Of a stretch of 64,000 bases of DNA, positions 28,608-64,000 are shown in pieces. The notes below the pieces were generated by a model, which was not told the DNA's origin, did not search any database, and worked only from the letters and a program-made list of their open reading frames with translations. Position numbers and translations under genes: made by a program. Source of the DNA: Escherichia coli (lineage in GTDB: Bacteria; Pseudomonadota; Gammaproteobacteria; Enterobacterales; Enterobacteriaceae); assembly GCF_051903065.1 (NCBI RefSeq), contig NZ_CP178438.1. One strand, 5' to 3'. Numbering within the stretch: position 1 is the stretch's first letter; the number at the start of each line of letters is the position of its first letter.

Positions 28608-28666
28608 TTCACATTTCTGTGACATACTATCGGATGTGCGGTAATTGTATGGAACAGGAGACACAC

Positions 28667-31627: not shown

Positions 31628-31703
31628 TGGCTCCTCTGACTGGACTCGAACCAGTGACATACGGATTAACAGTCCGCCGTTCTACCGACTGAACTACAGA
31701 GGA
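31628..31703 (-). tRNA. asnW: tRNA-Asn (GUU)
   Basis: Reverse complement is identical to asnT. Upstream on the minus strand: TTGACA (rc of 31745-31750) and TAATAT (rc of 31722-31727). Confidence 0.95.
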
Positions 31704-31803
31704 ATCGTGAGAACGAGGCGAATATTAGCGATGCCCACCCACAATGTCAAAGCCTGTTTTTTAAATTTGAAATCGTTTGCTGAAATAATCTGCATTTTGT
31801 CGT

Positions 31804-33291: not shown

Positions 33292-33407
33292 TTCAAATAA
33301 TGAGGGAGAATCAGCAAAGCTGCAAAGATTTTCGCCAACAAATTGTCTGCAAATGCAACAAACTGTTGATAGAAACGGCAAACAGTTGGGGAATTTAAAA
33401 ATCGGGT

Positions 33408-33435
33408 TTGACAAAAGATTTTTCGCCGTTAAGAT
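33408..33435 (+). promoter_or_regulatory. sigma70 promoter of asnU (TTGACA-16bp-TAAGAT)
   Basis: -35 TTGACA 33408-33413, -10 TAAGAT 33430-33435, tRNA begins 33452. Confidence 0.55.
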
Positions 33436-33451
33436 GTGCCTCAACAGCGAT

Positions 33452-33527
33452 TCCTCTGTAGTTCAGTCGGTAGAACGGCGGACTGTTAATCCGTATGTCA
33501 CTGGTTCGAGTCCAGTCAGAGGAGCCA
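33452..33527 (+). tRNA. asnU: tRNA-Asn (GUU)
   Basis: Identical 76-nt sequence to asnT. Confidence 0.95.
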
Positions 33528-33536
33528 AATTTCTGA

Positions 33537-33564
33537 AAAGCCCGCTTTTATAGCGGGCTTTTTG
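33537..33564. terminator. Bidirectional terminator between asnU and cbl
   Basis: AAAGCCCGC-TTTTAT-AGCGGGCTTTTT. Confidence 0.65.
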
Positions 33565-34515: not shown

Positions 34516-34616
34516 GGTAAACTCCGGGCAGTTCAGATTTCCCGTTATTGTTAAAGTCTAATGCCCGGCATAACAAATAATAAAAACCCGCATCTTATTC
34601 CATCCCGATATAACGC

Positions 34617-35534
34617 TTAGCTCACCAATTGCCACTGCCTTTTTTCCATCACTGGAGAACTAATCACTGACATTAACAACTCTTTCACTGCCTGTGCCTG
34701 TGGTGACAAGTTCGCTCTGGCGGGTAAATTTAATGACAAAGAGAGACTCATGGAAGGAGTGGTAATGCGTGACATCCACCCGTTTACTGCGCCACATAAC
34801 GAACGCGCGGCCGATTCAGGTAATACTGCAACGCCCATGCCGCTGGCAATCGCTGCGGTAAGCGTGGCAATAGACTCAATTTCACCAATGACTTTTGCCG
34901 TGAGTCGCCGTAGGGAAAACGCCTCATCAACACGAAGTCTAACAGCGCTGTAATCACTGGGGAGAAAGAGGTTCATTTGTGCAATAGCATTAACATCAAC
35001 GCTTTGCCCCGGGCAATCTTGAGTTCCTACCAGGAAAAGATCTTCTTTCAGCAAAGCCTGACTGGATACCCCAGCCACAGGGGAATGCTCATAAATCACC
35101 GCCATATCGAGTTGGTGATTTATCAGTTTTTCGTTAAGCACTGCACCGCTATTTTCATGAAGATAGATAACGATCTCCGGGAATTCAGCGCGAACCGCCT
35201 GTAATAAGGGCATGGTGATGGATGACGCAGCGGTTCCTGGCGCAAAGCCAATCGAGACTTGCCCCGATAATGCCTGACCAACGTTATGCACCGCCAGTTG
35301 GGCCTGCTCACACTGACGTAAAATGGCCCGCGCATGGGTATAGAGAATTTTTCCGGCGTCTGTTGGCGTAACGCCCCGTTTTGTGCGAATCAAAAGTTGT
35401 TGATTTAACTCACCTTCCAGTGTGGCAACCTGCTGGCTGAGCGCTGGTTGTGCGATATGCAATACTTCAGCAGCCTGAGTCAGGCTACCAATATCTACAA
35501 TTTTTACGAAGTATTTCAGGCGTCTGAAGTTCAT
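34617..35534 (-). CDS. nac: Nitrogen assimilation control protein Nac (LysR family)
   Basis: 305 aa from MNFRRLKYFVKIVDIGSLTQAAEVLHIAQPALSQQV (ATG 35532-35534). Confidence 0.9.
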   Translation of the reverse strand: MNFRRLKYFVKIVDIGSLTQAAEVLHIAQPALSQQVATLEGELNQQLLIRTKRGVTPTDAGKILYTHARAILRQCEQAQLAVHNVGQALSGQVSIGFAPGTAASSITMPLLQAVRAEFPEIVIYLHENSGAVLNEKLINHQLDMAVIYEHSPVAGVSSQALLKEDLFLVGTQDCPGQSVDVNAIAQMNLFLPSDYSAVRLRVDEAFSLRRLTAKVIGEIESIATLTAAIASGMGVAVLPESAARSLCGAVNGWMSRITTPSMSLSLSLNLPARANLSPQAQAVKELLMSVISSPVMEKRQWQLVS

Positions 35535-35589
35535 GTTGCCTCCGGTTTTTAAGAATCGGCCCAAGTGCCGCCATTACTTACAACCAGAT

Positions 35590-35605
35590 TGCAAGATGCT
35601 TGCCA
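35590..35605 (-). promoter_or_regulatory. sigma54 (-24/-12) promoter of nac
   Basis: Minus strand reads TGGCAAGCATCTTGCA, matching TGGCAC-N5-TTGCA, about 55 bp upstream of the nac ATG. Confidence 0.6.
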
Positions 35606-35722
35606 GTTTTATTTTGGCGTTGATGTACAAGCTAACCAACTGTCAAATAAGAGATTATGATAGATTCGTCATTTGCTCCTTTAATCAGCTGTCGCGTTCC
35701 CCTGCCCTATAAAAGGAGGGTA

Positions 35723-35739
35723 TGCACCACGATGGTTCA
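35723..35739. promoter_or_regulatory. Candidate NtrC binding site upstream of the nac sigma54 promoter
   Basis: TGCACCACGATGGTTCA versus consensus TGCACCA-N3-TGGTGCA, about 125 bp upstream of the -24 element. Confidence 0.5.
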
Positions 35740-35860
35740 TTACCCAATAAGATTGAAAGCTCACCACTTTGTTGAAATTGACAGCAAACAAACAAAAAAA
35801 TGCATTTCACCCTTTGACATCACCATGCACTGCCATTAATATGCGCCCCGTTCACACGAT

Positions 35861-35936
35861 TCCTCTGTAGTTCAGTCGGTAGAACGGCGGACTGTTAATC
35901 CGTATGTCACTGGTTCGAGTCCAGTCAGAGGAGCCA
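35861..35936 (+). tRNA. asnV: tRNA-Asn (GUU)
   Basis: Identical 76-nt sequence; preceded by TTGACA (35814-35819), 17 bp, TAATAT (35837-35842). Confidence 0.95.
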
Positions 35937-39498: not shown

Positions 39499-39858
39499 TT
39501 ACGAAAGAAGATGGCATTGTGGAATAGCCAGACTTCCTCGTGTTAACGTCCGACAAAATGCGTCATTGACAGCGGTTTCTCTGGAATGACAGATTTCATT
39601 CAGATAATGGATTAATGCTACAGCCCCACCAGCCGGACCAGTCAGTAAACGGGCATTGTGTTCTGCAATCAAAATTACCGTCGTTCCCTCAGAATGAGCG
39701 AGCCATTCTGGTACGGATATCTCGCTTTCAGCTGCTATCAATAGCTGCACTGAATAATCGCTATACGCATCTGATAATGATTGCACAGACCCACCGTTAA
39801 GAGGCTGGAAATCTTGCTGCCAGTCCTCACGGATAAAACCGCAGCCTCTACAGTGCAT
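39499..39858 (-). pseudogene. Orphan ORF immediately upstream of cobU; possible remnant of a lost cbi/cob gene (identity unverified)
   Basis: 119-aa ORF with no recognisable start context. It sits where Salmonella carries cbiP directly upstream of cobU. Confidence 0.3.
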
Positions 39859-40133
39859 TGTTGGTCAGTGCCTGCGAAGCAGACATTATCGCGCTGGTGC
39901 TTAATGCGGACGCACCGTGGTCACCTTTTTCGCCTGGCTTTATCTCGTCAATGAATCGTCCGATCATTGGAGTAGTCACCAAAGCAGATTTAGCCAGCAT
40001 GGAAGAAATATCTTTGGTGAAAGTTTGGTTACGGGAAGCTGGATCGCACAACGTGTTAGTAACCAGTGCGGTTAATAACAATAGAGTTGCAGAACTTTTT
40101 GCCTTGCTTCATACAGAAGATGTCTGTCGCTAA
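39858..40133 (+). pseudogene. C-terminal fragment of a EutP/PduV-family small GTPase (gene remnant)
   Basis: 91-aa ORF lacking the N-terminal P-loop but containing [11 protein letters not shown] (G4-like TKxD motif) in the arrangement seen in EutP/PduV proteins; no RBS. Confidence 0.4.
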
Positions 40134-43958: not shown

Positions 43959-45386
43959 ATGATGAATGACGGTAAGCAACAATCTACCTTTTTGTTTCAC
44001 GATTACGAAACCTTTGGCACGCACCCCGCGTTAGATCGCCCTGCACAGTTCGCAGCCATTCGCACCGATAGCGAATTCAATGTCATCGGCGAACCCGAAG
44101 TCTTTTACTGCAAGCCCGCTGATGACTATTTACCCCAGCCAGGAGCAGTATTAATTACCGGTATTACCCCGCAGGAAGCACGGGCGAAAGGAGAAAACGA
44201 AGCCGCGTTTGCCGCCCGTATTCACTCGCTTTTTACCGTACCGAAGACCTGTATTCTGGGCTACAACAATGTGCGTTTCGACGACGAAGTCACACGCAAC
44301 GTTTTTTATCGTAATTTCTACGATCCTTACGCCTGGAGCTGGCAGCATGATAACTCGCGCTGGGATTTACTGGATGTTATGCGTGCCTGTTATGCCCTGC
44401 GCCCGGAAGGAATAAACTGGCCTGAAAATGATGACGGTCTACCGAGCTTTCGCCTTGAGCATTTAACCAAAGCGAATGGTATTGAACATAGCAACGCCCA
44501 CGATGCGATGGCTGATGTGTACGCCACTATTGCGATGGCAAAGCTGGTAAAAACGCGTCAGCCACGCCTGTTTGATTATCTCTTTACCCATCGCAATAAA
44601 CACAAACTGATGGCGTTGATTGATGTTCCGCAGATGAAACCCCTGGTTCACGTTTCCGGAATGTTTGGGGCATGGCGCGGCAATACCAGCTGGGTGGCAC
44701 CGCTGGCGTGGCATCCTGAAAATCGCAATGCCGTAATTATGGTGGATTTGGCAGGAGACATTTCGCCATTACTGGAACTGGATAGCGACACATTGCGCGA
44801 GCGTTTATATACCGCAAAAGCCGATCTTGGCGATAACGCCGCCGTTCCGGTTAAGCTGGTGCATATCAATAAATGTCCGGTGCTGGCCCAGGCGAATACG
44901 CTACGCCCGGAAGATGCCGACCGACTGGGAATTAATCGTCAGCATTGCCTCGATAACCTGAAAATTCTGCGTGAAAATCCGCAAGTGCGCGAAAAAGTGG
45001 TGGCGATATTCGCGGAAGCCGAACCGTTTACGCCTTCAGATAACGTGGATGCACAGCTTTATAACGGCTTTTTCAGTGACGCCGATCGTGCAGCAATGAA
45101 AATTGTGCTGGAAACCGAGCCACGTAATTTACCGGCACTGGATATCACTTTTGTTGATAAACGAATTGAAAAACTGTTGTTCAATTATCGGGCGCGCAAC
45201 TTCCCGGGGACGCTGGATTATGCCGAGCAGCAACGCTGGCTGGAGCACCGCCGCCAGGTATTCACACCCGAGTTTTTACAAGGCTATGCAGAAGAGATTC
45301 AGATGCTGGCGCAGCAGTATGCCGACGATAAAGAAAAAGTGGCGCTGTTAAAAGCGCTTTGGCAGTACGCGGAAGAGATCGTCTAG
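43959..45386 (+). CDS. sbcB: Exodeoxyribonuclease I SbcB
   Basis: 475 aa from MMNDGKQQSTFLFHDYETFG (DnaQ-like exonuclease motif); the track's ORF is extended upstream. Confidence 0.92.
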   Translation: MMNDGKQQSTFLFHDYETFGTHPALDRPAQFAAIRTDSEFNVIGEPEVFYCKPADDYLPQPGAVLITGITPQEARAKGENEAAFAARIHSLFTVPKTCILGYNNVRFDDEVTRNVFYRNFYDPYAWSWQHDNSRWDLLDVMRACYALRPEGINWPENDDGLPSFRLEHLTKANGIEHSNAHDAMADVYATIAMAKLVKTRQPRLFDYLFTHRNKHKLMALIDVPQMKPLVHVSGMFGAWRGNTSWVAPLAWHPENRNAVIMVDLAGDISPLLELDSDTLRERLYTAKADLGDNAAVPVKLVHINKCPVLAQANTLRPEDADRLGINRQHCLDNLKILRENPQVREKVVAIFAEAEPFTPSDNVDAQLYNGFFSDADRAAMKIVLETEPRNLPALDITFVDKRIEKLLFNYRARNFPGTLDYAEQQRWLEHRRQVFTPEFLQGYAEEIQMLAQQYADDKEKVALLKALWQYAEEIV

Positions 45387-45392
45387 TTTGAA

Positions 45393-45417
45393 GCCTCCGC
45401 CGCTGATACGGCGGAGG
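45393..45417. terminator. GC-rich hairpin between convergent sbcB and yeeD
   Basis: CCTCCGCCG-CTGATA-CGGCGGAGG; no clear U-tract. Confidence 0.4.
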
Positions 45418-45428
45418 ACAATGTTGGG

Positions 45429-45656
45429 TCAGGCTTTTTGAACGGTGATGCTCCACGCAGCATCGCCAATCTGCTGATAATCGGTGATGGCATGTCCTTC
45501 TTCTGCCGCCCACTGTGGGATTGCTTCAGTTGCCTGGGTGCAATCAAACTCAATTACCAACTCATCGCCGCTGGCCATTTCTGCCAGTGCTGCTTTTGCT
45601 TCTATGAGCGGAAACGGACAGACCTGCGTCACCACATCCAGCTTTTTAATCGCCAT
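45429..45656 (-). CDS. yeeD: TusA-like sulfurtransferase YeeD
   Basis: 75 aa with CPFP (CPxP) motif at the N-terminus. Confidence 0.85.
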   Translation of the reverse strand: MAIKKLDVVTQVCPFPLIEAKAALAEMASGDELVIEFDCTQATEAIPQWAAEEGHAITDYQQIGDAAWSITVQKA

Positions 45657-45669
45657 CTTTACACCTTAC

Positions 45670-46728
45670 TTAATTTGCCGCAGCAGTTGCCAGTCGCGCC
45701 TTACGCTGCGGTCGAACATACACAAGCCAGGACGCAGTCCAGACTCCGAGAATCATAAATACAAGGCCAATCCAGCCCTGCCAGGTCATCATTGCAGTCA
45801 TAACCAGTCCATTACCGATAGAGCAACCACCTGCAATACTGGCACCGAAGCCCATCAGTACACCACCTAACCCGCTACGTACTGTTGTTTGTGCATCAGC
45901 TGCGCGAACGCGGAACTCACGGCTCGCTTTGGCTGCAATAAATGACCCCACGAAGATCCCTAACACCAGGAAAACGCCCCAGTTAATGTATTTCACGTCA
46001 CCCGCGACCAGAAATTGCAGAATATTGGCCGTTGGGGAAGTGATTCCTAACCCAAACATGCGTCCGGTTGCTTCACTCAGGGGCCAGGCTAAAAGCGCAA
46101 TCAAACCGATGAGTACAGCAGTGACAAAGGGATGCCAGCGTTTTTCAAACAGAATATGAGCGATCCCGGTTCGGCGCGGCGGTAAAGTCGCGACTTTCAG
46201 TTTTGGCTTCTTCAACTCTTTCATCACCACCCAGAGCGTTATCACCAGCAAAACGGCGACCAACGGCCACACAGACAAATTAAAAGTCTCAGCAATAGAG
46301 TTATGTTCAGTAGTGTAGTGCTGCAAGGTTTGATTTAAACCACTGGCATGTGGAGAACGCATCACCGCACTCATCACCATATAAGTGAAAAGCGCGATCC
46401 AACTGCCGATCAATCCCTCACCCGCGCGATACCAGGTCCCGGTGGCACATCCACCCGCCAGAACAATTCCCAGCCCGAAGATATACCCACCTATAACAGT
46501 ACCAAGCCACGGGAACGCCCCGGCTTCGTAAGTCAGTAGGCCCGCCTGAATTAACGCAAAAACCCCCACGCTTTGTACCGAAATTGCAATCAGCAGGGCG
46601 TAAAACATGCGATTATTTTTCGCGATATACATATCGCGAAAACCACCTGTCAGGCAAAAACGCCCACGCTGCATGACAAATCCCAGCAGAGCACCACAAA
46701 TTAGCCCGCTTAATATCATTGAAAACAT
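45670..46728 (-). CDS. yeeE: YeeE/YedE-family membrane transporter (thiosulfate uptake)
   Basis: 352-aa polytopic membrane protein directly upstream of yeeD. Confidence 0.85.
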   Translation of the reverse strand: MFSMILSGLICGALLGFVMQRGRFCLTGGFRDMYIAKNNRMFYALLIAISVQSVGVFALIQAGLLTYEAGAFPWLGTVIGGYIFGLGIVLAGGCATGTWYRAGEGLIGSWIALFTYMVMSAVMRSPHASGLNQTLQHYTTEHNSIAETFNLSVWPLVAVLLVITLWVVMKELKKPKLKVATLPPRRTGIAHILFEKRWHPFVTAVLIGLIALLAWPLSEATGRMFGLGITSPTANILQFLVAGDVKYINWGVFLVLGIFVGSFIAAKASREFRVRAADAQTTVRSGLGGVLMGFGASIAGGCSIGNGLVMTAMMTWQGWIGLVFMILGVWTASWLVYVRPQRKARLATAAAN

Positions 46729-46906
46729 AAATTAATTAACCAGATGAATGTTAATGAGGAAATTATTCATGACTGGTGGAATGCAGACCAATAACCAAAT
46801 TCTCTAAATTAGAACAAATGGTTATTAATGAGGATTTCGATAAAAAAGAATAAAAAAACCGGAGCCAAATGTTCATTCGACTCCGGTTGATTATTAGAAA
46901 AGATGA

Positions 46907-48265
46907 TTATGCTACGTCTTCGTACTGCGGAACCGGGTTACGGAAGCTCTTGGTGACGCAAGCCAGGTAAATCAGACCGATAGCAGCCCAGATCAGACCC
47001 AGAACCATTGAGCTTTCTTCCAGGTTAACCCACAGTGCACCAACGGTCAGCGCACCACACATCGGCAGGAACAGATACTGGAAGTGATCTTTCAGCGTCT
47101 TATTACGCTTCTCACGGATCCAGAACTGCGAGATGACCGACAGGTTAACGAAGGTAAACGCCACCAGCGCACCAAAGTTGATCAGCGCCGTAGCCATTAC
47201 CAGGTCGAAGTTGATTGCCAGCAAGGCAATCGCGCCAACCAGGATGATGTTCATCGCCGGAGTACGCCATTTCGGGTGTACATAACCGAAGAAGCTTTTC
47301 GGGAACACGCCGTCACGACCCATTACGTACATCAGACGCGCTACGCCTGCGTGCGCCGCCATACCGGACGCCAGTACGGTAATGGTGGAGAAGATCAGCG
47401 CGCCAACCTGGAACGCTTTACCCGCAACGTACAGCATAATTTCAGGCTGTGACGCATCCGGATCTTTAAAGCGAGAGATATCCGGGAAGTACAGCTGCAG
47501 GAAGTAAGTTGCAAAGATGAAGATCATGCCGCCAATCAGCGCGGTAAGGAAAATCGCACGCGGGATCACGCGCTCTGCATCTTTGGTTTCTTCCGACAGG
47601 TTGCTGATGCCGTCAAAGCCGGTAAAGGAGAAGCACAGGATTGTCGCCCCGGTAATCATCGGGATAACATGCGCATCGCCAGACCAGAATGGACGAGTGC
47701 TCGCCAGCGTACCAGCGCCTTCACCTTCAAATACGCCATAAACAACCATGCCCAGAATCACCGCGATCAGCACTACCTGCAACACGACGATTACAGTGTT
47801 GAAGTTCGCTACGGATTTCAGACTACGCAGGTTAAAGGCGGTCATAAAGGCCACCAGCGCCACCACAAACATCCACGATGGGATGGAAGGCACCAGAGCT
47901 TCAAAATAGATTTTCGCCAGCAGAATGTTGATCATCGGCGCGAACAGATAGTCGAGCAGAGAAGACCAACCCACCATAAAGCCGACAGTCGGGCTAATGG
48001 ATTTCTGGGCGTAAGTATATGCAGAGCCAGCAGAAGGATAGCGGCGAACCAGCTTCCCGTAGCTCAGAGCCGTAAACAGGATCGCAATCAATGCGAACGC
48101 ATAGGCTGTCGGCACATGACCATCCGTGAGGCCTGAAACGATACCAAAAGTATCAAACAGCGTCATCGGCTGCATATAGGCAAGACCCATCATTACAACC
48201 GGAACTAACGTAAGCGTTTTACGCAATTCCACGCGAGAGGTGTTTGGAGTAACGTTATGCGACAT
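46907..48265 (-). CDS. plaP: APC-family putrescine importer PlaP (YeeF)
   Basis: About 452 aa from [16 protein letters not shown]; 12 TM helices; AAGGAG RBS. Confidence 0.85.
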
Positions 48266-48317
48266 GGTCATTCTCCTTTACGGTGATAACCGTCGCGTAA
48301 GCAAAAAATTGCCCCAT
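48255..48317 (-). CDS. yoeI: 20-codon upstream small ORF overlapping the plaP start (YoeI-like; [20 protein letters not shown])
   Basis: My own translation: ATG at 48315-48317 to TAA at 48255-48257 on the minus strand. It contains the plaP RBS and start codon in another frame. Sequence agrees with my recollection of the K-12 small protein YoeI. Confidence 0.5.
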
Positions 48318-48413
48318 TTTTTTGGATTCCTCAGCGACAACAACTGTCGATTTTTAGTAAATATCTATCCGGTACGAAGCCCGGCCTCTTGGTATGAATG
48401 ATTGGTTTGAAGC

Positions 48414-48450
48414 AAAAAATAACCGACGCTGATGAAACGTCGGTTTTTAG
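48414..48450. terminator. Bidirectional intrinsic terminator downstream of yeeY
   Basis: AAAAAAT-AACCGACG-CTGATGAAA-CGTCGGTT-TTTAG. Confidence 0.55.
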
Positions 48451-48531
48451 TCATTTTTTGACAGCGGCGCATTGTGCCTAAATGGGGGGGAAATGACAAG
48501 AGAATGAGAGGCTTGTCATAATAATTTTTCT

Positions 48532-49461
48532 TTAAATGGCTGATTTTCCGTCATCAGATTTTGCATAAACACCGGCGATCGCACTATTTGCTAAAATTTC
48601 ATCCCGCCACCAGCCGCTGGCAAGCCCTGCGGTCTGTTCATTCCAGCCAATCCAGACGGGTTCAAAGAGAGTTTGGGCGACCACTTTCTTCTCGATTAAC
48701 GCGCCACTATCGAGAAAACGTTGCGCCAGATAACGGGGTAAATAGCCGCAGCCGAGGCCGCTAATTTGCAGCTCCAGCTTGGTTTTAAAATCGAAAACGG
48801 TAATGGCTTCTTGTTCGTCGAGAAGTTGTGAGGCCGTAGAAGCGCCTGCCTGCGCAGTGTCCCCCACCACAATCGCCCGATATCGCTTAATGATACGACG
48901 GTTTAACGGCTCTTCTTCCTGGGCTAACGGATGATGAGGCGCGACCGCAAAGACTTGTTCCAGATCGCCCAACCGCGAGAAACCAAACTCACTGGAAGAT
49001 GGTGGCTCATGCATCGCGCCAACAATAATATCCGCTCGCCCCTGAGTCAGGGCATCCCATGAACCACCGAGTACGCCATTGATAAACTTCAGGCGCGTCA
49101 CGCTATGATGTTGATAAAAAGCTTCAATGAGTGGCGCAAGCAGAGAAAAAGGAAACGTGTCGTCCACGCCAATCACCAGTTCGTTTTCCCAGCCTTCATG
49201 CAGTTTGATCGCCTGCTTTTCCAGTTCCCGCACGGTATGCAGAACTTCCCGCCCTTTCTCTAATAACATTTTTCCGGTGCGGGTGAATTTAGCGCGGTGA
49301 CCGCTACGATCAAGCAATTGAATATTAAGGTCGCTTTCCAGCTTGTGAACGGTGTAACTCAGAGCGGACGGCGTCTTGTAGAGTTTGGCCGACGCCGCCG
49401 CAAAACTGCCTTCTTTTTCTAAGGCATCGAGGATCATCAACACATCCAGCAGTGGTTTCAT
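48532..49461 (-). CDS. yeeY: LysR-family transcriptional regulator YeeY
   Basis: 309 aa from MKPLLDVLMILDALEKEGSFAAASAKLYKTPSALSYTV (HTH). Confidence 0.8.
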   Translation of the reverse strand: MKPLLDVLMILDALEKEGSFAAASAKLYKTPSALSYTVHKLESDLNIQLLDRSGHRAKFTRTGKMLLEKGREVLHTVRELEKQAIKLHEGWENELVIGVDDTFPFSLLAPLIEAFYQHHSVTRLKFINGVLGGSWDALTQGRADIIVGAMHEPPSSSEFGFSRLGDLEQVFAVAPHHPLAQEEEPLNRRIIKRYRAIVVGDTAQAGASTASQLLDEQEAITVFDFKTKLELQISGLGCGYLPRYLAQRFLDSGALIEKKVVAQTLFEPVWIGWNEQTAGLASGWWRDEILANSAIAGVYAKSDDGKSAI

Positions 49462-49506
49462 ACACGCCCCCTTGCAGTGCATGCGGCGTCCTGCTGGCGT
49501 GATCGT

Positions 49507-50331
49507 TTACTCCAGCGGCATTACCAGCGGATCGGGATACTGGTATTCAAACCCCAGTTCATTACAAATCCGACTGCCATCAATAATCTTACCTTTGCCG
49601 CTGTCCAGACTATTTCTGAACTGCGGAGGTTCCAGCCCCAGTAAACGGGCCATCTGCGGATAGAAAACATTACGCGCAGGGTGAGCTGGCGCACATATAT
49701 TATAGATGTGTCCGCCTTTAGGTGCCTGTAACAACAGAGTGATAGCGCCAATAACATCTTCTAAATGGACTAAATTAACACCATGTTCACCATCAGGCGC
49801 AGTTTTTCCGGCAAAGAAGCGTCCGGGATGACGTCCCGGTCCGACCAGCCCCGCAAGACGCAGAATATCGACCGAAGTACCGGGTAAATTGTGCAGCCAG
49901 TCTTCGAGTTCTTCTAATACTCGTCCACTGTTGGTCACCGGATTACGCGGGGTGGTTTCTTTCACCGTGCCTTGCGCGTCGCCATAGACAGACGTTGAGC
50001 TGGTAAAAATAATGCGGGGAATACGATGGGCCAGCGCGCTATCCACTAACTCTTGTACCGCTTGTAAATAGAACTCATCGCCGGGGCCGCTACGACGTGC
50101 CGGAAGCGTAATGACCAGGGCGTCGGCATCCATCAGGGCATCCAGATCGTCAGAATCGCAAACTAACTCAGGCTCCATGCGAAGCAGATAGCTATCAATG
50201 CCACTCATTCGGGCCGCTTCGACACCATCTTGTGTGGTTTTACTCCCGGTGACTTGCCAGCCTCGCGCTGAAAGTGACATCGCCAGCGGCATGCCTAACC
50301 ACCCTAACCCGACAATTGCGACCTTTTTCAT
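49507..50331 (-). CDS. yeeZ: NAD-dependent epimerase/dehydratase-like protein YeeZ
   Basis: 274 aa; Rossmann N-terminus MKKVAIVGLGWLG. Confidence 0.8.
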   Translation of the reverse strand: MKKVAIVGLGWLGMPLAMSLSARGWQVTGSKTTQDGVEAARMSGIDSYLLRMEPELVCDSDDLDALMDADALVITLPARRSGPGDEFYLQAVQELVDSALAHRIPRIIFTSSTSVYGDAQGTVKETTPRNPVTNSGRVLEELEDWLHNLPGTSVDILRLAGLVGPGRHPGRFFAGKTAPDGEHGVNLVHLEDVIGAITLLLQAPKGGHIYNICAPAHPARNVFYPQMARLLGLEPPQFRNSLDSGKGKIIDGSRICNELGFEYQYPDPLVMPLE

Positions 50332-50435
50332 CCGTTATCTCCTGATACACCTTAGATCTATAAGGCTACGCTAGCGTATCAAAACTGACAATTCATTCTA
50401 TGAATGAAATCGAAACGGTTAGCAAATATACCATT

Positions 50436-50535
50436 GCCTGATGCGCTCCGCTTATCAGTCCTACAAAAACTTCAATATATTGAATTTACGCAACATTTGT
50501 AGACCAGATAAGGCATTCACGCCGCATCCGGCAGG
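50436..50535. repeat. BIME (two inverted REP units) between yeeZ and hisL
   Basis: GCCTGATGCGCTCCGCTTATCAGTCCTAC ... GTAGACCAGATAAGGCATTCACGCCGCATCCGGCAGG. Confidence 0.6.
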
Positions 50536-50757
50536 AACAAAGCCCACTTTAGTTACAGAACACAATGTTCTTGAGGGTTTTAAAGACATATTTTCACGAT
50601 TACTTCTCTAACGTAGTCACTCCAGGCCCCCACCTTTCCCCGCTCATTCATTAAACAAATCCATTGCCATAAAATATATAAAAAAGCCCTTGCTTTCTAA
50701 CGTGAAAGTGGTTTAGGTTAAAAGACATCAGTTGAATAAACATTCACAGAGACTTTT

Positions 50758-50808
50758 ATGACACGCGTTCAATTTAAACACCACCATCATCACCATCATC
50801 CTGACTAG
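50758..50808 (+). CDS. hisL: his operon leader peptide HisL (MTRVQFKHHHHHHHPD)
   Basis: 16 codons with seven consecutive His codons. Confidence 0.95.
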   Translation: MTRVQFKHHHHHHHPD

Positions 50809-50870
50809 TCTTTCAGGCGATGTGTGCTGGAAGACATTCAGATCTTCCAGTGGTGCATGAACGCATGAGA

Positions 50871-50907
50871 AAGCCCCCGGAAGATCACCTTCCGGGGGCT
50901 TTTTTAT
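50871..50907 (+). terminator. his attenuator terminator
   Basis: AAGCCCCCGGAAG-ATCAC-CTTCCGGGGGCTT followed by TTTTTATT, directly upstream of hisG. Confidence 0.85.
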
Positions 50908-50953
50908 TGCGCGATTGATAACGGTTCAGACAGGTTTAAAGAGGAATAAGAAA

Positions 50954-51853
50954 ATGACAGACAACACTCGTTTACGCATAGCTATGCAGAAATCCGGCCG
51001 TTTAAGTGATGACTCACGTGAATTGCTGGCGCGCTGTGGCATTAAAATCAATCTTCACACCCAGCGCCTGATCGCGATGGCAGAAAACATGCCGATTGAT
51101 ATTCTGCGCGTGCGTGACGACGACATTCCCGGTCTGGTAATGGATGGCGTGGTAGACCTTGGGATTATCGGCGAAAACGTGCTGGAAGAAGAACTGCTTA
51201 ACCGCCGCGCCCAGGGTGAAGATCCGCGCTACTTTACCCTGCGTCGTCTGGATTTCGGCGGCTGCCGACTTTCACTGGCAACGCCGGTTGATGAAGCCTG
51301 GGACGGCCCGCTCTCCTTAAACGGTAAACGTATCGCCACCTCTTATCCTCACCTGCTCAAGCGTTATCTCGACCAGAAAGGCATCTCTTTTAAATCCTGC
51401 TTACTGAACGGTTCTGTTGAAGTCGCCCCGCGTGCCGGACTGGCGGATGCGATTTGCGATCTGGTTTCCACCGGTGCCACGCTGGAAGCAAACGGCCTGC
51501 GCGAAGTCGAAGTTATCTACCGCTCGAAAGCCTGCCTGATACAACGCGATGGCGAAATGGAAGAATCCAAACAGCAACTGATCGACAAACTGCTGACCCG
51601 TATTCAGGGCGTGATCCAGGCGCGCGAATCAAAATACATCATGATGCACGCACCGACCGAACGTCTGGATGAAGTCATCGCCCTGCTGCCAGGTGCCGAA
51701 CGCCCAACCATTCTGCCGCTGGCGGGTGACCAACAGCGCGTAGCGATGCACATGGTCAGTAGCGAAACCCTGTTCTGGGAAACGATGGAAAAACTGAAAG
51801 CGCTGGGAGCCAGTTCAATCCTGGTCCTGCCGATTGAGAAGATGATGGAGTGA
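50954..51853 (+). CDS. hisG: ATP phosphoribosyltransferase HisG
   Basis: 299 aa from [17 protein letters not shown]. Confidence 0.95.
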
Positions 51854-51858
51854 TCGCC

Positions 51859-54229
<2,371 letters not shown>

Positions 54230-54230
<1 letters not shown>

Positions 54231-55296
54231 TGAGTCAGAAGTATCTTTTTATCGATCGCGATGGAACCCTGATTAGCGAACCGCCGAGTGATTTTCAGGT
54301 GGACCGTTTTGACAAACTCGCCTTTGAACCGGGCGTGATCCCGGAGCTACTGAAGCTGCAAAAAGCGGGCTACAAGCTGGTGATGATCACTAATCAGGAT
54401 GGTCTGGGAACACAAAGTTTCCCGCAGGCAGATTTCGATGGCCCGCACAACCTGATGATGCAGATCTTCACCTCGCAAGGCGTGCAGTTTGATGAAGTGC
54501 TGATTTGTCCGCACCTGCCCGCCGATGAGTGCGACTGCCGTAAGCCGAAAGTGAAACTGGTGGAAGGTTACCTCGCTGAGCAAGCGATGGATCGTGCCAA
54601 CAGTTATGTGATTGGCGATCGCGCGACCGATATTCAACTGGCGGAAAACATGGGCATTAATGGTTTACGCTATGACCGCGAAACCCTGAACTGGCCAATG
54701 ATTGGCGAGCAACTCACCAGACGTGATCGTTACGCCCACGTGTTGCGCAACACCAAAGAGACGCAGATTGACGTCCAGGTGTGGCTGGATCGTGAAGGTG
54801 GCAGCAAGATTAACACCGGCGTTGGCTTCTTTGATCACATGCTGGATCAGATCGCCACCCACGGCGGTTTCCGCATGGAAATCAACGTCAAAGGCGACCT
54901 CTATATCGACGATCACCACACCGTCGAAGATACCGGTCTGGCGCTGGGCGAAGCATTAAAAATCGCCCTCGGCGACAAACGCGGTATTTGCCGCTTCGGT
55001 TTTGTGCTGCCGATGGACGAATGCCTTGCCCGCTGCGCGCTGGATATCTCTGGTCGCCCGCACCTGGAATATAAAGCTGAATTTACCTACCAGCGCGTGG
55101 GCGATCTCAGCACTGAAATGATCGAGCACTTCTTCCGTTCGCTCTCATACACCATGGGCGTGACGTTGCACCTGAAAACCAAAGGTAAAAACGATCACCA
55201 CCGTGTAGAGAGCCTGTTCAAAGCCTTTGGTCGCACCCTGCGCCAGGCCATCCGCGTGGAAGGCGACACCCTGCCCTCGTCGAAAGGAGTGCTGTA

Positions 55297-55297
<1 letters not shown>
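54230..55297 (+). CDS. hisB: Bifunctional histidinol-phosphatase / imidazoleglycerol-phosphate dehydratase HisB
   Basis: 355 aa from [13 protein letters not shown]. Confidence 0.95.
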
Positions 55298-57375
<2,078 letters not shown>

Positions 57376-57382
<7 letters not shown>

Positions 57383-57987
57383 CAGAACAACAACGCCGCG
57401 AACTGGACTGGGAAAAAACCGACGGACTGATGCCGGTGATTGTGCAACACGCGGTATCCGGTGAAGTGTTAATGCTGGGCTATATGAACCCGGAAGCTCT
57501 GGACAAAACCATCGAAAGCGGCAAAGTCACCTTTTTCTCCCGCACTAAACAGCGACTGTGGACCAAAGGCGAAACGTCGGGCAATTTCCTCAATGTGGTG
57601 AGTATTGCCCCGGACTGCGACAACGACACGTTACTGGTACTGGCGAATCCCATCGGCCCAACCTGCCACAAAGGCACCAGCAGCTGTTTCGGCGACACCG
57701 CTCACCAGTGGCTGTTCCTTTATCAACTGGAACAACTGCTCGCCGAACGTAAATCTGCCGACCCGGAAACCTCCTACACCGCCAAACTGTATGCCAGCGG
57801 CACCAAGCGCATTGCGCAGAAAGTGGGTGAAGAAGGCGTGGAAACCGCACTGGCAGCAACGGTACATGACCGCTTTGAGCTGACCAACGAGGCATCTGAC
57901 TTGATGTATCACCTGCTGGTGCTGTTGCAGGATCAGGATCTGGATTTAACGACGGTAATTGAGAACCTGCGTAAACGGCATCAGTGA
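57376..57987 (+). CDS. hisI: Bifunctional PR-AMP cyclohydrolase / PR-ATP pyrophosphatase HisI
   Basis: 203 aa. Confidence 0.95.
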
Positions 57988-58028
57988 GTTGCGGGGTAAG
58001 TGGATGCGATGTTGTTGTCGCATCCGGC

Positions 58029-58070
58029 AAAAAAAACGGGCAAGGTGTCACCACCCTGCCCGTTTTCTTT
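58029..58070. terminator. Bidirectional terminator between hisI and wzzB
   Basis: AAAAAAAACGGGCAAGGTG-(loop)-CACCCTGCCCGTTTTCTTT. Confidence 0.8.
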
Positions 58071-58083
58071 AAAACCGAAAAGA

Positions 58084-59064
58084 TTATTTCGCGTTGTAGT
58101 TGCGTAGAGCATTACGCCCCAGCACAATCCCCGCGCCAACCATGCCGCCCAGCAGCATCGCCAGAATCAAGGTGATTGCCTTTTTCGGACTATCGCGACG
58201 AATAGGTAACGTCGGTTTCATCACATAACGGTAAGCATGAATATCAAGATCATCAACTTTTAAGCTTTCGATATCCAGCAGGTTTTGACGAGTCTGATAG
58301 TAGTTTGGCGAGAACACCAACGGACGGGTCGCCTCATGCTTAATCATCGACTCCAGCGCTTCGCTCCCCAAAAGGAACAACGTATCTTGCGTGATATCTT
58401 CGCCAGTCTGTTGAATTTGCGGTTTTGTCACCTGCGCCTGATTCGCATACTGCAACGCTTCCTGAATCTGACGGATACGCAGATCTTTCTGCTCTTGCGC
58501 GACTACTTCCTGAGTTCTTAAAGAGTCCTGCAAGTTTTTCATACGCAGCGCGATGTTGTCTTTCAGGTCTTTTTCCAGCTCTACGTTTACCTGGTCGTCA
58601 ACTTGCTGGATATACTTCGCCAGCTGCTTCTGAGCACCTTCAGGTGTTTCACCAACATAAGACACCGCTAAAGGTAATGACTGATTTTTAACGGTAGGCT
58701 CAATGGTCAGCTTTTCTGCTTCTTCCTGGTTATCCAGCGTTTCCGCTAATGCTGAGAATGCAGTGCTGTAACGTCCGATAAGCGAAGCCTGAATGTCGGA
58801 GACTTTCGGTACAGCCGGACCGTAAATCACATTCATCGCGTTGGTATAACCAGCGATTTGCCCCACATCAGGTTGAGTAACGATAGCTGTGGAAGTCCAC
58901 TTTTCTTTGGCAACGGCCAGATACCCTATAGCCAGGGCAATAGCCACAATGACAGAGATGATAATTGTCATCTTGCCGCGCCACAACTGCACCAGTAAAT
59001 CAATCAAATCAATCTGTTCCGGGTCATGGTTTTGCCCAGAAACATTATTATTTTCTACTCTCAT
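58084..59064 (-). CDS. wzzB: O-antigen chain-length determinant WzzB (Cld)
   Basis: About 326 aa from MRVENNNVSGQNHDPEQIDLIDLL; two TM helices flanking a periplasmic coiled-coil domain. Confidence 0.9.
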   Translation of the reverse strand: MRVENNNVSGQNHDPEQIDLIDLLVQLWRGKMTIIISVIVAIALAIGYLAVAKEKWTSTAIVTQPDVGQIAGYTNAMNVIYGPAVPKVSDIQASLIGRYSTAFSALAETLDNQEEAEKLTIEPTVKNQSLPLAVSYVGETPEGAQKQLAKYIQQVDDQVNVELEKDLKDNIALRMKNLQDSLRTQEVVAQEQKDLRIRQIQEALQYANQAQVTKPQIQQTGEDITQDTLFLLGSEALESMIKHEATRPLVFSPNYYQTRQNLLDIESLKVDDLDIHAYRYVMKPTLPIRRDSPKKAITLILAMLLGGMVGAGIVLGRNALRNYNAK

Positions 59065-59210
59065 CATTACCCTAACGGACGAAATAATTTTAAGTCGCCA
59101 TAGTTTAGCGATAATCGCCATGAATGCTATAGGATAAATGATAAAAATAATGAATTATTACAAAGGGAACATAAGAGAATCAGGGCGAAAATCGCCCTGA
59201 TAACAGGATG

Positions 59211-60377
59211 TTAGTCACTGCCAAAGAGATCGCGGGTGTAGACTTTGTCTGCCACATCCTTAAGCTCTTCTGCCATACGGTTGGAAATAATGACGTCGGC
59301 TTGTTGTTTGAAGGTGGCGAGATCTCGTTCCAGGCGAGAGTTGAAGAATGAGTCTTCTTTCATCACCGGCTCGTATATGATCACTTCAACGCCTTTCGCC
59401 TTGATACGTTTCATAATCCCCTGAATGGAAGACGCACGGAAGTTATCTGACCCGCTCTTCATAATCAGACGATAAATACCCACCACTTGCGGCTTGCGTG
59501 ACAAAATGGCATCGGCAATAAAATCTTTACGTGTGCGGTTAGCATCGACAATTGCCGAAATCAGGTTATTCGGCACAGACTGGTAGTTCGCCAGTAACTG
59601 CTTGGTATCTTTCGGCAGACAATAACCACCATAACCAAACGACGGATTGTTGTAATGGTTGCCAATACGCGGATCGAGACAAACGCCTTCGATAATCTGG
59701 CGAGTATTCAGACCTAAACTTTCTGCATAGCTATCCAGTTCATTAAAGTATGCTACGCGCATCGCCAGATAGGTATTAGCGAAAAGTTTAATCGCTTCTG
59801 CTTCAGTGGAGTCGGTAAACAGTGTAGGGATATTTTGCTTAATCGCGCCTTCCTGTAACAACGCAGCAAAACGTTCTGCGCGTTCTGAACGCTCACCAAT
59901 GACAATACGTGAAGGATGGAGATTATCGTAAAGGGCTTTACCTTCACGGAGAAATTCCGGAGAGAAAATAAGGTTATCGATACCCAGACGTTCTTTAATT
60001 GATTTGGTGAAACCTACCGGAATTGTAGATTTAATCACCATTACCGCGTTGGGATTAATTTCTGTCACATCACGGATGACCGCTTCCACGCTTGAGGTAT
60101 TAAAATAATTTGTTTTCGGATCATAATCGGTAGGCGTGGCAATAATAACGTAATCGGCATTTTTATACGCGTCATACTTATCTGTCGTAGCGCGGAAATT
60201 GAGATCTTTAGTCGCCAGATACTCTTCAATCTCCTTATCAACAATCGGTGACTGCTTCTTGTTAAGCATGTCCACTTTGGCCTGAACGATATCCAGTGCA
60301 ACCACTTCGTGGTTTTGCGCAATCAGAATACCATTTGAAAGACCAACATAACCTGTTCCTGAAATTGTTATTTTCAT
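59211..60377 (-). CDS. ugd: UDP-glucose 6-dehydrogenase Ugd
   Basis: 388 aa from [16 protein letters not shown] (NAD-binding Rossmann motif). Confidence 0.92.
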
Positions 60378-60625
60378 TAGCTCTGACTTCTTCCGGTTAA
60401 ACATTTAGAGTGGTCATTAATCCACCACCACAGCTTCATCTACTGCGGGATTTTTAACGCTGATGTAGATGAACTGTCAAGGCAGCGATCCTGCTGTGCG
60501 ACTCTGTATTATATCGCTTTTTTAACCATTAATTATAAAAAAAGGCCATAACCTGCCGCTTTGTATAATAAAAAAGCCCGAAGGGTTTCTCCGGGCCTTG
60601 CATTGATTAATTGATTTAAATCAGA

Positions 60626-62032
60626 TTAATCCAGCCATTCGGTATGGAACACACCTTCTTTATCAATGCGCTTATAAGTATGTGCACCGAAATAGTCACG
60701 CTGTGCCTGGATCAGGTTCGCAGGCAGAACTGCGGCGCGGTAGCTGTCATAATAGGCAACCGCAGCGGCGAAGGTCGGAACCGGGATACCGTTCTGTACC
60801 GCATAAGCGACGACATCGCGCAGCGCCTGCTGGTAGTCATCGGCAATTTGCTTGAAGTACGGAGCCAGCAGCAGGTTAGCGATCTGCGGATTTTCGGCGT
60901 ATGCATCGGTGATTTTCTGCAGGAACTGCGCACGGATGATGCAACCAGCACGGAAAATCTTCGCGATTTCGCCGTAGTTCAGATCCCAGTTGTACTCTTC
61001 AGACGCAGCACGCAGCTGAGAGAAGCCCTGAGCGTAAGAAACGATTTTGCCCAGATACAGCGCACGACGAACTTTTTCGATGAACTCAGCCTTGTCGCCT
61101 GCTGGCTGTGCTTGCGGGCCAGAGAGAACTTTAGATGCGGCAACACGCTGATCTTTCAGAGAAGAGATATAACGTGCAAACACAGACTCGGTAATCAGCG
61201 ACAGCGGTTCGCCGAGATCCAGTGCGCTCTGGCTGGTCCATTTACCGGTACCTTTGTTAGCCGCTTCATCCAGGATCACATCAACCAGGTAGTTACCGTC
61301 TTCATCTTTTTTGGTGAAGATATCTTTGGTGATGTCGATCAGGTAGCTGCTCAGTTCACCGTTATTCCACTCGGTAAAGGTCTGCGCCAGTTCTTCGTTG
61401 GTGAGGTTCAGGCCACCTTTAAGCAGAGAATAGGCTTCAGCAATCAGCTGCATATCGCCGTATTCAATACCGTTGTGAACCATCTTCACATAGTGACCTG
61501 CACCATCGGCACCAATATAGGTAACGCATGGCTCACCGTCTTCAGCTACTGCGGCGATTTTGGTCAGGATCGGTGCAACCAGTTCATAGGCTTCTTTCTG
61601 CCCACCAGGCATAATGGAAGGACCTTTCAGCGCACCTTCTTCACCGCCGGAAACACCGGTACCAATGAAGTTAAAGCCTTCTGCAGAAAGCTCACGGTTA
61701 CGACGAATGGTGTCCTGGAAGAAGGTGTTACCGCCATCAATGATGATGTCACCTTTATCGAGATATGGTTTGAGGGAATCAATAGCAGCATCCGTGCCTG
61801 CACCTGCTTTCACCATTAACAGGATGCGACGAGGCGTTTCCAGAGATTCAACAAACTCTTTCACCGTATAGTAAGGAACCAGTTTCTTGCCTGGATTTTC
61901 GGCAATCACTTCTTCCGTTTTCTCACGGGAACGGTTGAAAATAGAGACGGTATAACCACGGCTTTCGATGTTGAGCGCAAGGTTGCGCCCCATCACTGCC
62001 ATACCGACGACGCCGATCTGTTGCTTTGACAT
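60626..62032 (-). CDS. gnd: 6-phosphogluconate dehydrogenase (decarboxylating) Gnd
   Basis: 468 aa from [27 protein letters not shown]. Confidence 0.95.
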
Positions 62033-62169
62033 TGTTTACTCCTGTCAGGGGGTTACCGCGGGATTTGACGGTTAAAAAGGATAACAGATATAAAATAAGA
62101 CATGCAATAAATGAATGATAGACTCAATTATTATCAATGTTTTAAAATTAAACAAATAGAGTTAAACTC

Positions 62170-62916
62170 TTAAGCGTGTTTTCTTAATGCACGCTGGATA
62201 TAATGCAGAAAATAATACATTGCCTTTACATATCCAAAACCAAGATAATAACGGTAAAACTCCCATTGCGATTTTATTATTTTTATCTTATTCGATGATA
62301 AACTTAAATGACCTTCGCGATAAAATGCTAGGTTTTTATTTAGGCAGTGGGCATAATCTATTTTTTGCAGGATTATTAGCCATAATGCCATATCTTGACG
62401 CTTTCGTATGAGTGGCATATATACTTTACCCACAACTTCCGTGTCATAAATTGCAGTAAGGCATCCGATAACATTGGATTTCAGTAAAGAAGAAAAATCG
62501 ACTTTTGATGGGGGCAGAATATCTTTTTTAATATTACCATATGCATCAATTTTACTATATGCAGTATAAGTAAGGGCGTAGCCATTCATAATCATATAAT
62601 TAATCTGCTCTTTTAGTTTATCGGGTGCCCATAGATCATCACTATCTAAAAAAGCCAAAAATCGTCCACTAGACTCTTTTATTGAGTTGTTTCTTGCTGC
62701 GCCTGCGCCTTTATTTTTATCTGAAACAAAAAGTTTTATCCTGTCATCTTGCTCAACAAATTCTTTAACTATCTGACAAGTTCTATCTGTTGAGCAGTCA
62801 TCAGTAATTAACAACTCCCAATTAGAATATGTTTGTTCTATTACCGATTTTATACTTTCCTTAATTGTGAATTCAGAATTATAACTGGGCATAATAATTG
62901 ACACAAGATAATCCAT
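62170..62916 (-). CDS. GT2-family glycosyltransferase (O-antigen cluster, gnd-proximal)
   Basis: 248 aa from MDYLVSIIMPSYNSEFTIKESIKSV with DxD-like DSDD motif; very low GC. Confidence 0.8.
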   Translation of the reverse strand: MDYLVSIIMPSYNSEFTIKESIKSVIEQTYSNWELLITDDCSTDRTCQIVKEFVEQDDRIKLFVSDKNKGAGAARNNSIKESSGRFLAFLDSDDLWAPDKLKEQINYMIMNGYALTYTAYSKIDAYGNIKKDILPPSKVDFSSLLKSNVIGCLTAIYDTEVVGKVYMPLIRKRQDMALWLIILQKIDYAHCLNKNLAFYREGHLSLSSNKIKIIKSQWEFYRYYLGFGYVKAMYYFLHYIQRALRKHA

Positions 62917-62918
62917 TA

Positions 62919-63950
62919 TTATTTCCTCCCTTTATTTTGATCGTAGCCTTTCGGGTTTTTTATTTGCCAATTCCAAGAATCTCGTAGCATATCCTCTAAA
63001 TTTAATTTGGCTGACCAACCGAGTTCATTGAAGGCTAACATTGGATCAGACCAACATTCTGCTATATCTCCATCTCGCCTTGATATAACACACTTATTTA
63101 TTTTTCTAGCTATAATTCTCTCGAAAGTATCAACCAACTCTAATACTGAATATCCTTTACCTGTACCTAAATTATATATCCTGATAGAATTTTCTTTAAA
63201 CTCTGCATTCAAAGCAGCAATATGTCCATCGGCAAGATCCATAACATGAATAAAATCCCGAACTCCATATCCGTCCCTGGTAGGATAATCATTCCCAAAT
63301 ATTTTCAATGAATCTAATTCGCCTATAGCAACCTTAGTGAGATATGGTACAAGATTATTAGGAATCCCATTCGGAGCCTCACCTATCATTCCACTGGGAT
63401 GTGCTCCTACCGGATTAAAGTATCGTAATGAAATAATATCAAAACCATAATTTGCTTTCGCAAAATCACAAAGGATTTGTTCTGCCATTAATTTCGAAGT
63501 GCCATAAGGATTTGTTGTACCACCTACTTTACATTTTTCATTTAATGGAATTTGTTCAGGCTCACCATAAACCGTTGCAGAAGAACTAAAAATAATTTTC
63601 TTGGCTTTGCTATTTATCATAGCACTAAGGACACTAATTGTTCCCTGAACATTATTATTATAATATTCAAGAGGCCTACTGATTGACTCAGAAACAGATT
63701 TCAACCCAGCAAAATGAATGACCGCATCAATATCTTTATTAATAATTACTTCGTGTAATAATTCTGTGTTAAGTATATCCATTTCGATAAAGCAAATGCT
63801 TTTTTGCGTGATATTCTCTACACGCTTAATTACCTCAGATGAAGAATTAACCAAATTATCCACAACAGTAATTTCATTTTCATTTTCTAATAAGCGAAGT
63901 ACCGTATGCGAACCAATATAACCAGCCCCACCTGTTACTAGGATATTCAT
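62919..63950 (-). CDS. NAD-dependent UDP-sugar 4-epimerase (GalE/Gne family), O-antigen cluster
   Basis: 343 aa; N-terminal MNILVTGGAGYIGSH, catalytic YxxxK (PYGTSK); very low GC. Confidence 0.85.
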   Translation of the reverse strand: MNILVTGGAGYIGSHTVLRLLENENEITVVDNLVNSSSEVIKRVENITQKSICFIEMDILNTELLHEVIINKDIDAVIHFAGLKSVSESISRPLEYYNNNVQGTISVLSAMINSKAKKIIFSSSATVYGEPEQIPLNEKCKVGGTTNPYGTSKLMAEQILCDFAKANYGFDIISLRYFNPVGAHPSGMIGEAPNGIPNNLVPYLTKVAIGELDSLKIFGNDYPTRDGYGVRDFIHVMDLADGHIAALNAEFKENSIRIYNLGTGKGYSVLELVDTFERIIARKINKCVISRRDGDIAECWSDPMLAFNELGWSAKLNLEDMLRDSWNWQIKNPKGYDQNKGRK

Positions 63951-64000
63951 ATTACTCCTTACGATATCGCATGATAATTTTTCTTTTAATTCTCTCTAAA

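Follow-up and report, generated by a model that had tools for sequence, protein, structure and literature searches.

The window analysed here, a 64,000-nt stretch of Escherichia coli DNA, ends in a run of genes in the order hisA, hisF and hisIE on the plus strand, then wzzB, ugd and gnd on the minus strand, followed by two further minus-strand open reading frames and the 3' end of a third gene, which is cut by the end of the window (Table 1). The wzzB, ugd and gnd genes are securely identified, each exceeding its curated NCBIfam cut-off, and wzzB carries the same annotation in the matching genome of strain 23CRST027. In the program-made list of open reading frames the wzzB frame is 345 aa long, its start lying upstream of that annotated for the 326-aa protein. 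The gnd gene shares 96.7% DNA identity with gnd of K-12 (blastn).

Table 1. Features of the gnd-proximal O-antigen region, with positions counted from the first base of the window
Feature	Position	Strand	Evidence
wzzB, O-antigen chain-length regulator, conserved flank	58084-59064	-	NCBIfam NF012015 WzzB, 598 bits (cut-off 267)
ugd, UDP-glucose 6-dehydrogenase, conserved flank	59211-60377	-	NCBIfam NF011631, 827 bits (cut-off 757); annotated ugd in 23CRST027
gnd, 6-phosphogluconate dehydrogenase, conserved gene bounding the O-antigen locus	60626-62032	-	NCBIfam TIGR00873, 770 bits (cut-off 427)
gnd ribosome-binding region, last bases common to other O-types	62033-62049	-	K-12 homology limit at 62049; AGGAG Shine-Dalgarno of gnd inside
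O38-specific AT-rich spacer, GT2 stop codon to gnd	62050-62169	-	Not alignable with the spacer of K-12
Last gene of the O38 cluster, 248-aa family-2 glycosyltransferase (GT-A, inverting)	62170-62916	-	Pfam PF00535 Glycos_transf_2
343-aa GalE-clade UDP-hexose 4-epimerase, Cys299 gatekeeper, predicted Gne	62919-63950	-	TIGR01179 galE
GT32 glycosyltransferase gene, 3' end (last 15 codons and stop, 49 nt, cut by the window end)	63952-64000	-	Translation LERIKRKIIMRYRKE*

The base composition changes abruptly at the gnd boundary: from base 62033 onward GC drops to about 0.33, as against about 0.50 in gnd, and GC3 drops from 0.54 to 0.25. When calculated in windows of 500 nt, GC lies between 0.49 and 0.54 over gnd (60750-61999) and between 0.32 and 0.36 from 62000 to the window end. 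The same step is seen gene by gene, with a GC of 0.508 and a GC3 of 0.535 in gnd, compared to 0.328 and 0.261 in the family-2 glycosyltransferase (GT2) gene and 0.345 and 0.244 in the epimerase gene; the entire interval from gnd to galF in 23CRST027 has a GC of 0.31.

The product of the gnd-proximal gene matches PF00535 over residues 6-124 with 127.5 bits, against a gathering cut-off of 23.3, and contains a single DxD motif, DSD at residues 91-93, which aligns with the DSDD of chondroitin synthase (2z87). In the PDB, GT-A domains from chondroitin synthase and heparosan synthase align with its N-terminal half, and its gene is preceded by a GGGAGG Shine-Dalgarno sequence. The protein is 99.2% identical to a homologue in Shigella dysenteriae and 97.6% identical to one in E. 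fergusonii. Beyond O38, S. dysenteriae type 8 and E. fergusonii, the next relatives are unnamed enterobacterial GT2s of approximately 250 aa with at most 67% identity, and thus the donor and acceptor cannot be read from homology; none of the best 120 homologues carries a functional name. The best curated model for the protein is TuaG, the glycosyltransferase of teichuronic acid synthesis (NCBIfam NF047683, an equivalog). Assignment as TuaG was rejected as the score of 271.6 bits falls below the cut-off of 400, making this protein a relative of that family and not a member.

The product of the second gene exceeds the cut-offs of two GalE equivalog models, TIGR01179 (437 bits, cut-off 262.3) and NF007956 (442 bits, cut-off 394), and both NCBIfam and PGAP/RefSeq name it plainly as GalE/galE. 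It can be aligned to E. coli GalE without a single gap, at 51.6% identity, and keeps the NAD-binding GxxGxxG motif (GGAGYIG at residue 7) together with the catalytic S124, Y149 and K153. In this gapless alignment residue 299, a Tyr in E. coli GalE, is a Cys, and the Cys is kept in all 7 of the full-length alleles checked. The best PDB match of the epimerase is 1lrk, a GalE chain with Cys at 299, which we take to be the Y299C mutant of E. coli GalE, and the wild type ranks behind it.

The final 49 nt of the window encode LERIKRKIIMRYRKE*, which is the C-terminus of a 228-aa GT32 protein in 23CRST027 that matches Pfam PF04488 (Gly_transf_sug) with 47.7 bits. The genome of this strain, which was isolated from human faeces in Ecuador, is identical to the window over positions 46033-64000 (17,968 nt, 100%) and differs from it by 3 mismatches over positions 1-46507 (99.994% identity). 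Since the match is perfect over the last 17,968 nt, 23CRST027 could be used to read past the end of the window, where the GT32 gene is followed by a gene for a 288-aa GT2, wzx, wzy, a 271-aa gene whose product has weak GT2 similarity, and then galF, 7.1 kb further on. RefSeq names the wzx product of 23CRST027 as "O38 family O-antigen flippase" and that of wzy as "O38 family O-antigen polymerase". The 271-aa protein is 99.3% identical to the S. dysenteriae protein "WffK" (UniProt B5L3A5), and the order of the seven genes from galF to gnd is wffK-like, wzy, wzx, GT2, GT32, epimerase and second GT2. The genes within the window are tightly packed, with gaps of 2 nt between GT2 and epimerase and 1 nt between epimerase and GT32, and their Shine-Dalgarno sites are strong (GGGAGG and AAGGAG); this arrangement fits a single transcription unit that would be read from galF toward gnd.

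The original prediction for this region, made from the letters alone, had described a sharp fall in GC downstream of gnd, a GT2 gene beside a GalE/Gne-type 4-epimerase gene, and a cluster running on past the window end. The 500-nt windows and the per-gene GC and GC3 values bear out the first, the PF00535 and TIGR01179 matches the second, and the GT32 stub together with the continuation in 23CRST027 the third. It had also placed the beginning of the cluster after gnd, which holds insofar as the cluster adjoins gnd; however, as transcription runs from galF to gnd, what lies here is the end of the cluster. Its further claim that neither gene matches the O16 cluster of K-12 withstood the comparison which it had itself named as able to overturn it: a tblastn search of the GT2 against the hisF-galF region of K-12 MG1655 gave nothing better than E=2.2, so that neither WbbL nor another O16 protein was matched, and the epimerase found RfbB only, at 25% identity. 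The latter similarity is at the level of the SDR superfamily, as expected between any two SDR-fold sugar enzymes. The statement that K-12 has wbbL and an IS at this position was also correct, with the MG1655 wbbL being interrupted by IS5 beside gnd.

The blastn alignment of the window with K-12 extends across gnd and breaks off at 62049, 17 nt 5' of the gnd ATG. The spacer beyond this point differs by 1 nt from that of strain NCTC9038 and is otherwise identical, and it is part of the O38-specific DNA. A scan of 61800-64000, the O38-specific spacer included, gave promoter-like and terminator-like sites at or below the counts expected from shuffled sequence, and no terminator-like site lay between the GT2 gene and gnd. 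No match was found in an Rfam scan of 58000-64000, spacer included.

The distribution of the block among sequenced strains provides the assignment. Of 5,426 complete E. coli genomes, 12 have the 1,968-nt fragment 62033-64000, in one chromosomal copy each and at 99.6-100% identity, and a search with the wzx-wzy segment returned the same 12 genomes and no others, a 12-for-12 co-occurrence. A more sensitive blastn search with the fragment found, elsewhere, just galE and GT2 paralogues of 64-68% identity in other O-clusters. There are no NCBIfam HMMs for the O38 wzx and wzy, and the PGAP names for these genes must therefore come from another type of rule; in place of an HMM test, in-silico PCR with the O38-specific wzx primers of Ludwig et al. 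(PMC7403468, supplement; expected amplicon 253 bp) was used as a check independent of annotation. The primers matched exactly and gave a 253-bp amplicon on both the 23CRST027 cluster and NCTC9038, and had no match in K-12 or in two other O-types. E. coli O38 and S. dysenteriae type 8 have been reported to possess a common O-antigen cluster and to cross-agglutinate (PMC4379981; PMC8795385; PMC6156305). Taken as a whole, the best explanation of these results, and one in which we have high confidence, is that 62033-64000 forms the 3' end, on the gnd side, of the O-antigen cluster of E. coli O38, which is the same as that of S. dysenteriae type 8, serving the Wzx/Wzy pathway proposed below. The O38 call draws on a near-identical genome and on co-occurrence rather than on the window's own sequence, and the comparisons above establish it along with the gene identities, the families to which the domains belong, and the residues at the catalytic and gatekeeper positions. 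The original prediction held that the O-type could not be assigned from this fragment; this did not survive, as the fragment is diagnostic, its carriers being the same 12 of 5,426 genomes that have the O38 wzx and wzy. The two gnd-proximal genes alone thus suffice to call O38.

As O-antigen clusters are mosaic and both wzx and wzy sit outside the window, being present in the matching 23CRST027 genome, the fragment could in principle come from a hybrid or different cluster that shares with O38 just the GT2 and epimerase module, in which case the strain would not be O38. Diverged homologues of this GT2 do occupy the same last slot in two other O-type clusters, but with protein identities of merely 59% and 47%, and no such hybrid exists among the 5,426 complete genomes, in which the fragment and the O38 wzx/wzy predict one another in both directions across the 12 carriers. 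With the window differing from one O38 genome by 3 mismatches in 64 kb, we regard a hybrid origin as very improbable. The possibility that the low-GC block was inserted recently and has nothing to do with the O antigen, being for example a mobile element or prophage remnant with sugar-modifying genes, is effectively refuted: the sharp fall in GC and the IS elements found inside this cluster in some strains would be in keeping with it, but the copy in the window shows neither a transposase nor an integrase nor a repeat boundary, the block fits precisely into the canonical slot between galF and gnd and is accompanied by wzx and wzy, and the same architecture is found in other O-types.

A separate question, within the O38 cluster, is whether the epimerase is a Gne or functionally just a second GalE which provides UDP-Gal for a galactose in the O unit, with N-acetylated substrates being irrelevant. 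A housekeeping galE is already present in the gal operon of E. coli, and a Tyr-type duplicate in the O38 cluster would therefore be redundant. The gatekeeper is indeed not Tyr but Cys299, retained by all sampled alleles, and that single change opens E. coli GalE to UDP-GalNAc, with a 230-fold increase in this activity in the Y299C mutant (PMC6668579); Cys or Ser at position 299 is characteristic of the group 2 and group 3 epimerases, which accept N-acetylated substrates (PMC6668579). The genomic context points the same way, as the gnu gene, which in 23CRST027 is located between galF and wcaM (24261-25256 of its locus L001), makes Und-PP-GalNAc as the first sugar when found upstream of galF (Cunneen et al., 2013, PMC3682973), and where a later sugar is also GalNAc, as in O86, its UDP-GalNAc comes from a clade-A GalE-like gene within the cluster (PMC3682973); the pairing of gnu and gne in O38 would thus fit a second GalNAc. 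O38 itself is absent from the supplement tables of the latter study (PMC3682973). The scores above the curated TIGR01179 and NF007956 cut-offs, the RefSeq annotation as galE and the fact that group-2 enzymes act on both substrate pairs (PMC6668579) are on the side of a second GalE, a role which we nevertheless consider quite unlikely to be the whole of its function. Cys299 at the gatekeeper position and the gnu gene upstream of galF argue for a Gne, predicted to supply UDP-GalNAc by interconversion of UDP-GlcNAc and UDP-GalNAc and probably also to interconvert UDP-Glc and UDP-Gal.

Comparison with NCTC9038, one of the 12 carriers, indicates how the cluster came to lie beside this gnd. The flank from his to gnd differs from that of NCTC9038 by approximately 3-4% (5-18 differences per 250 nt), whereas the block from 62033 differs by approximately 0.3-0.4% (99.6% DNA identity over 62033-64000). 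Homology to other O-types ends close to the gnd ATG, at 62049 for K-12, 62053 for CI5 and 62063 for OkiPb01697, that is 17-31 nt upstream of the start codon. As the flank has diverged so much further than the block and homology ends near the gnd ATG, the O38 block has passed from one lineage to another as a whole, one junction lying at the 5' edge of gnd, which is textbook behaviour for this locus. OkiPb01697 carries a different O-cluster and has Gnd and Ugd proteins with accessions identical to those of the window strain. A very recent O-antigen swap with OkiPb01697 was considered and rejected, as the flank DNA of the two is just 97.3% identical, the differences being synonymous.

The gene content allows a route of O-unit assembly to be proposed, in which the substrates, the linkages and the order of action are predictions that follow what is established for this pathway. 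WecA, encoded elsewhere, would make Und-PP-GlcNAc, and Gnu, encoded just upstream of galF, would convert this to Und-PP-GalNAc so that the unit starts with GalNAc. The epimerase of the window, having the small Cys299 as its gatekeeper, would act as Gne and provide the UDP-GalNAc donor for a later sugar, and could also make UDP-Gal. The 248-aa GT2, as an inverting and DxD-dependent enzyme, would add one beta-linked sugar to the lipid-linked unit, with the GT32 and the other GT2 or GT2s adding the remaining sugars; three or four transferases would give a tetra- or pentasaccharide. Wzx would then flip the unit, Wzy would polymerise it and WzzB, encoded in the window, would set the chain length. 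Should the O unit need UDP-GlcA, it could be supplied by Ugd. The O unit of S. dysenteriae type 8 probably contains GalNAc, Glc and GlcA. A literature search for polysaccharide structures of O38 or S. dysenteriae 8 yielded none. It may further be speculated that the GT2s of approximately 250 aa found in the gnd-proximal slot across unrelated O-types represent a conserved "terminal module", sharing a common linkage onto Und-PP-HexNAc and marking a preferred crossover point for O-antigen switching. In addition, the presence of gnu, the Cys299 Gne, ugd and three to four transferases would by itself predict that the O38 unit is a tetra- or pentasaccharide which starts with GalNAc and has GalNAc a second time. 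This wider proposal should be considered with caution, and in its entirety we find it rather doubtful.

The cluster was already known, and all of its features match the catalogued cluster and the standard Wzx/Wzy model of O-antigen synthesis, with no new biology. What has been refined over the original prediction is the assignment to O38, the recognition of the third-gene stub and the argument from Cys299 for Gne over GalE. The value of the result is thus one of annotation only: the fragment types its source strain as O38, and Cys299 provides specific grounds for annotating this cluster's "galE" as gne. The O38 serogroup occurs among cattle-associated Shiga toxin-producing E. coli (PMC7403468), and as the O38 antigen is common to S. 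dysenteriae type 8 it can confuse the identification of Shigella and enteroinvasive E. coli (PMC6156305).

Among known systems, the closest is the catalogued E. coli O38 cluster itself (Og38 in the set of Iguchi et al., 2015, PMC4379981), whose genes recur in unchanged order in 12 complete genomes, NCTC9038 among them, with a DNA identity of 99.4-100%. Three homopolymer deletions of 1 nt each in the NCTC9038 assembly are absent from the window strain; a literature search for NCTC9038 as the O38 reference strain found no paper. The cluster of S. dysenteriae type 8 is likewise similar when compared by two of its proteins (GT2 99.2% and WffK-like 99.3% identical), but belongs to a different host lineage, that of the Shigella/EIEC pathotype. 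The O16 locus of K-12 occupies the same galF-gnd slot in the same orientation, is likewise flanked by wzzB, ugd and gnd, and yet has no gene in common with the O38 cluster.

The E. coli O86 system resembles O38 in having both gne1 (gnu) upstream of galF and gne2 (gne), a clade-A GalE-like epimerase, inside the cluster (PMC3682973). However, the O86 gne is the first gene after galF, whereas the O38 epimerase is the second-last gene, beside the terminal GT2. At the level of the enzyme, the O38 epimerase is most like E. coli GalE Y299C (1lrk/1lrl) and human GALE, in which the equivalent residue is Cys307, with a gapless alignment, the S124/Y149/K153 residues and the gatekeeper Cys. In contrast to the Y299C mutant, the O38 enzyme is a natural product of an O-antigen cluster, and it is just 51.6% identical to E. 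coli GalE.

Comparison of the O38 O-antigen cluster in the NCTC9038 assembly (L002) with that of the window strain revealed three single-nucleotide deletions in NCTC9038, one in each of three genes: the gnd-proximal GT2 glycosyltransferase gene, the GT32 gene and the wffK-like gene, the last two being read in strain 23CRST027 (L001). All three fall within homopolymer runs (G5, A4, T6), and in RefSeq each splits one gene. These deletions look like long-read homopolymer errors rather than real frameshifts. Insertion sequences were found in the O38 clusters of duck isolates: the epimerase gene is interrupted by IS903B in two of them, BL12 and BHD6, and IS1 is present in the wzx/wzy region of a third, GS04, thus some strains of O38 genotype are probably O-rough or altered.

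In the window strain, the yefM-yoeB toxin-antitoxin pair is missing from the yeeZ-hisL interval, where 217 nt of REP-like sequence stand in place of a 658-nt segment found in NCTC9038, and tblastn across the entire window detected no remnants of YefM or YoeB. Between sbcB and plaP, the window strain carries a tsuB/tsuA (yeeD/yeeE) segment of ~1.5 kb, whereas NCTC9038 does not. A truncated pseudogene of the EutP/PduV family, overlapped by a small hypothetical gene, lies between cobU and tmaR; this site was probably left behind when a microcompartment or island segment was lost.

A tRNA-Asn gene adjoins the gene for a 2,660-aa Ig-like-domain protein, which we take to be a YeeJ-type inverse autotransporter and which contains an internal repeat (86% identical). 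The Ig-like-domain gene is followed by an apparently intact GT9 glycosyltransferase gene, presumably yeeL, which is a pseudogene in K-12. The RNA genes of the window are listed with the other features.

Coordinates of features in the window and in the compared loci
Feature	Location	Remark
IS903B site	L007 (BL12) 3238-4206	also BHD6; corresponds to a point inside window 62919-63950
Deletion, GT2	window 62510	NCTC9038 comparison
Deletion, GT32	L001 18240	NCTC9038 comparison
Deletion, wffK-like	L001 22726	NCTC9038 comparison
GT2 homologue	L005 8801-9553	59% protein identity
GT2 homologue	L006 8528-9301	47% protein identity
Ig-like-domain gene	window 17638-25620	
Internal repeat	window 20673-21454, 21282-22063	
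GT9 gene	window 25882-26934	
EutP/PduV pseudogene interval	window 39499-40133	
tsuB/tsuA segment	window 45385-46904	
REP-like sequence between yeeZ and hisL	window 50409-50625	
rseX sRNA	window 6357-6446	upstream of ompC; Rfam, above gathering score
STnc240 sRNA	window 48412-48486	Rfam, above gathering score
His operon leader	window 50784-50907	Rfam, above gathering score
tRNA-Asn (four), tRNA-Ser (one)	window 16174-35933	

Diverged homologues of the 248-aa GT2 occupy the last, gnd-adjacent slot of two unrelated O-antigen clusters (L005 and L006), and the filling of this same slot in unrelated clusters hints that a GT2-type gene next to gnd is a recurrent terminal module.
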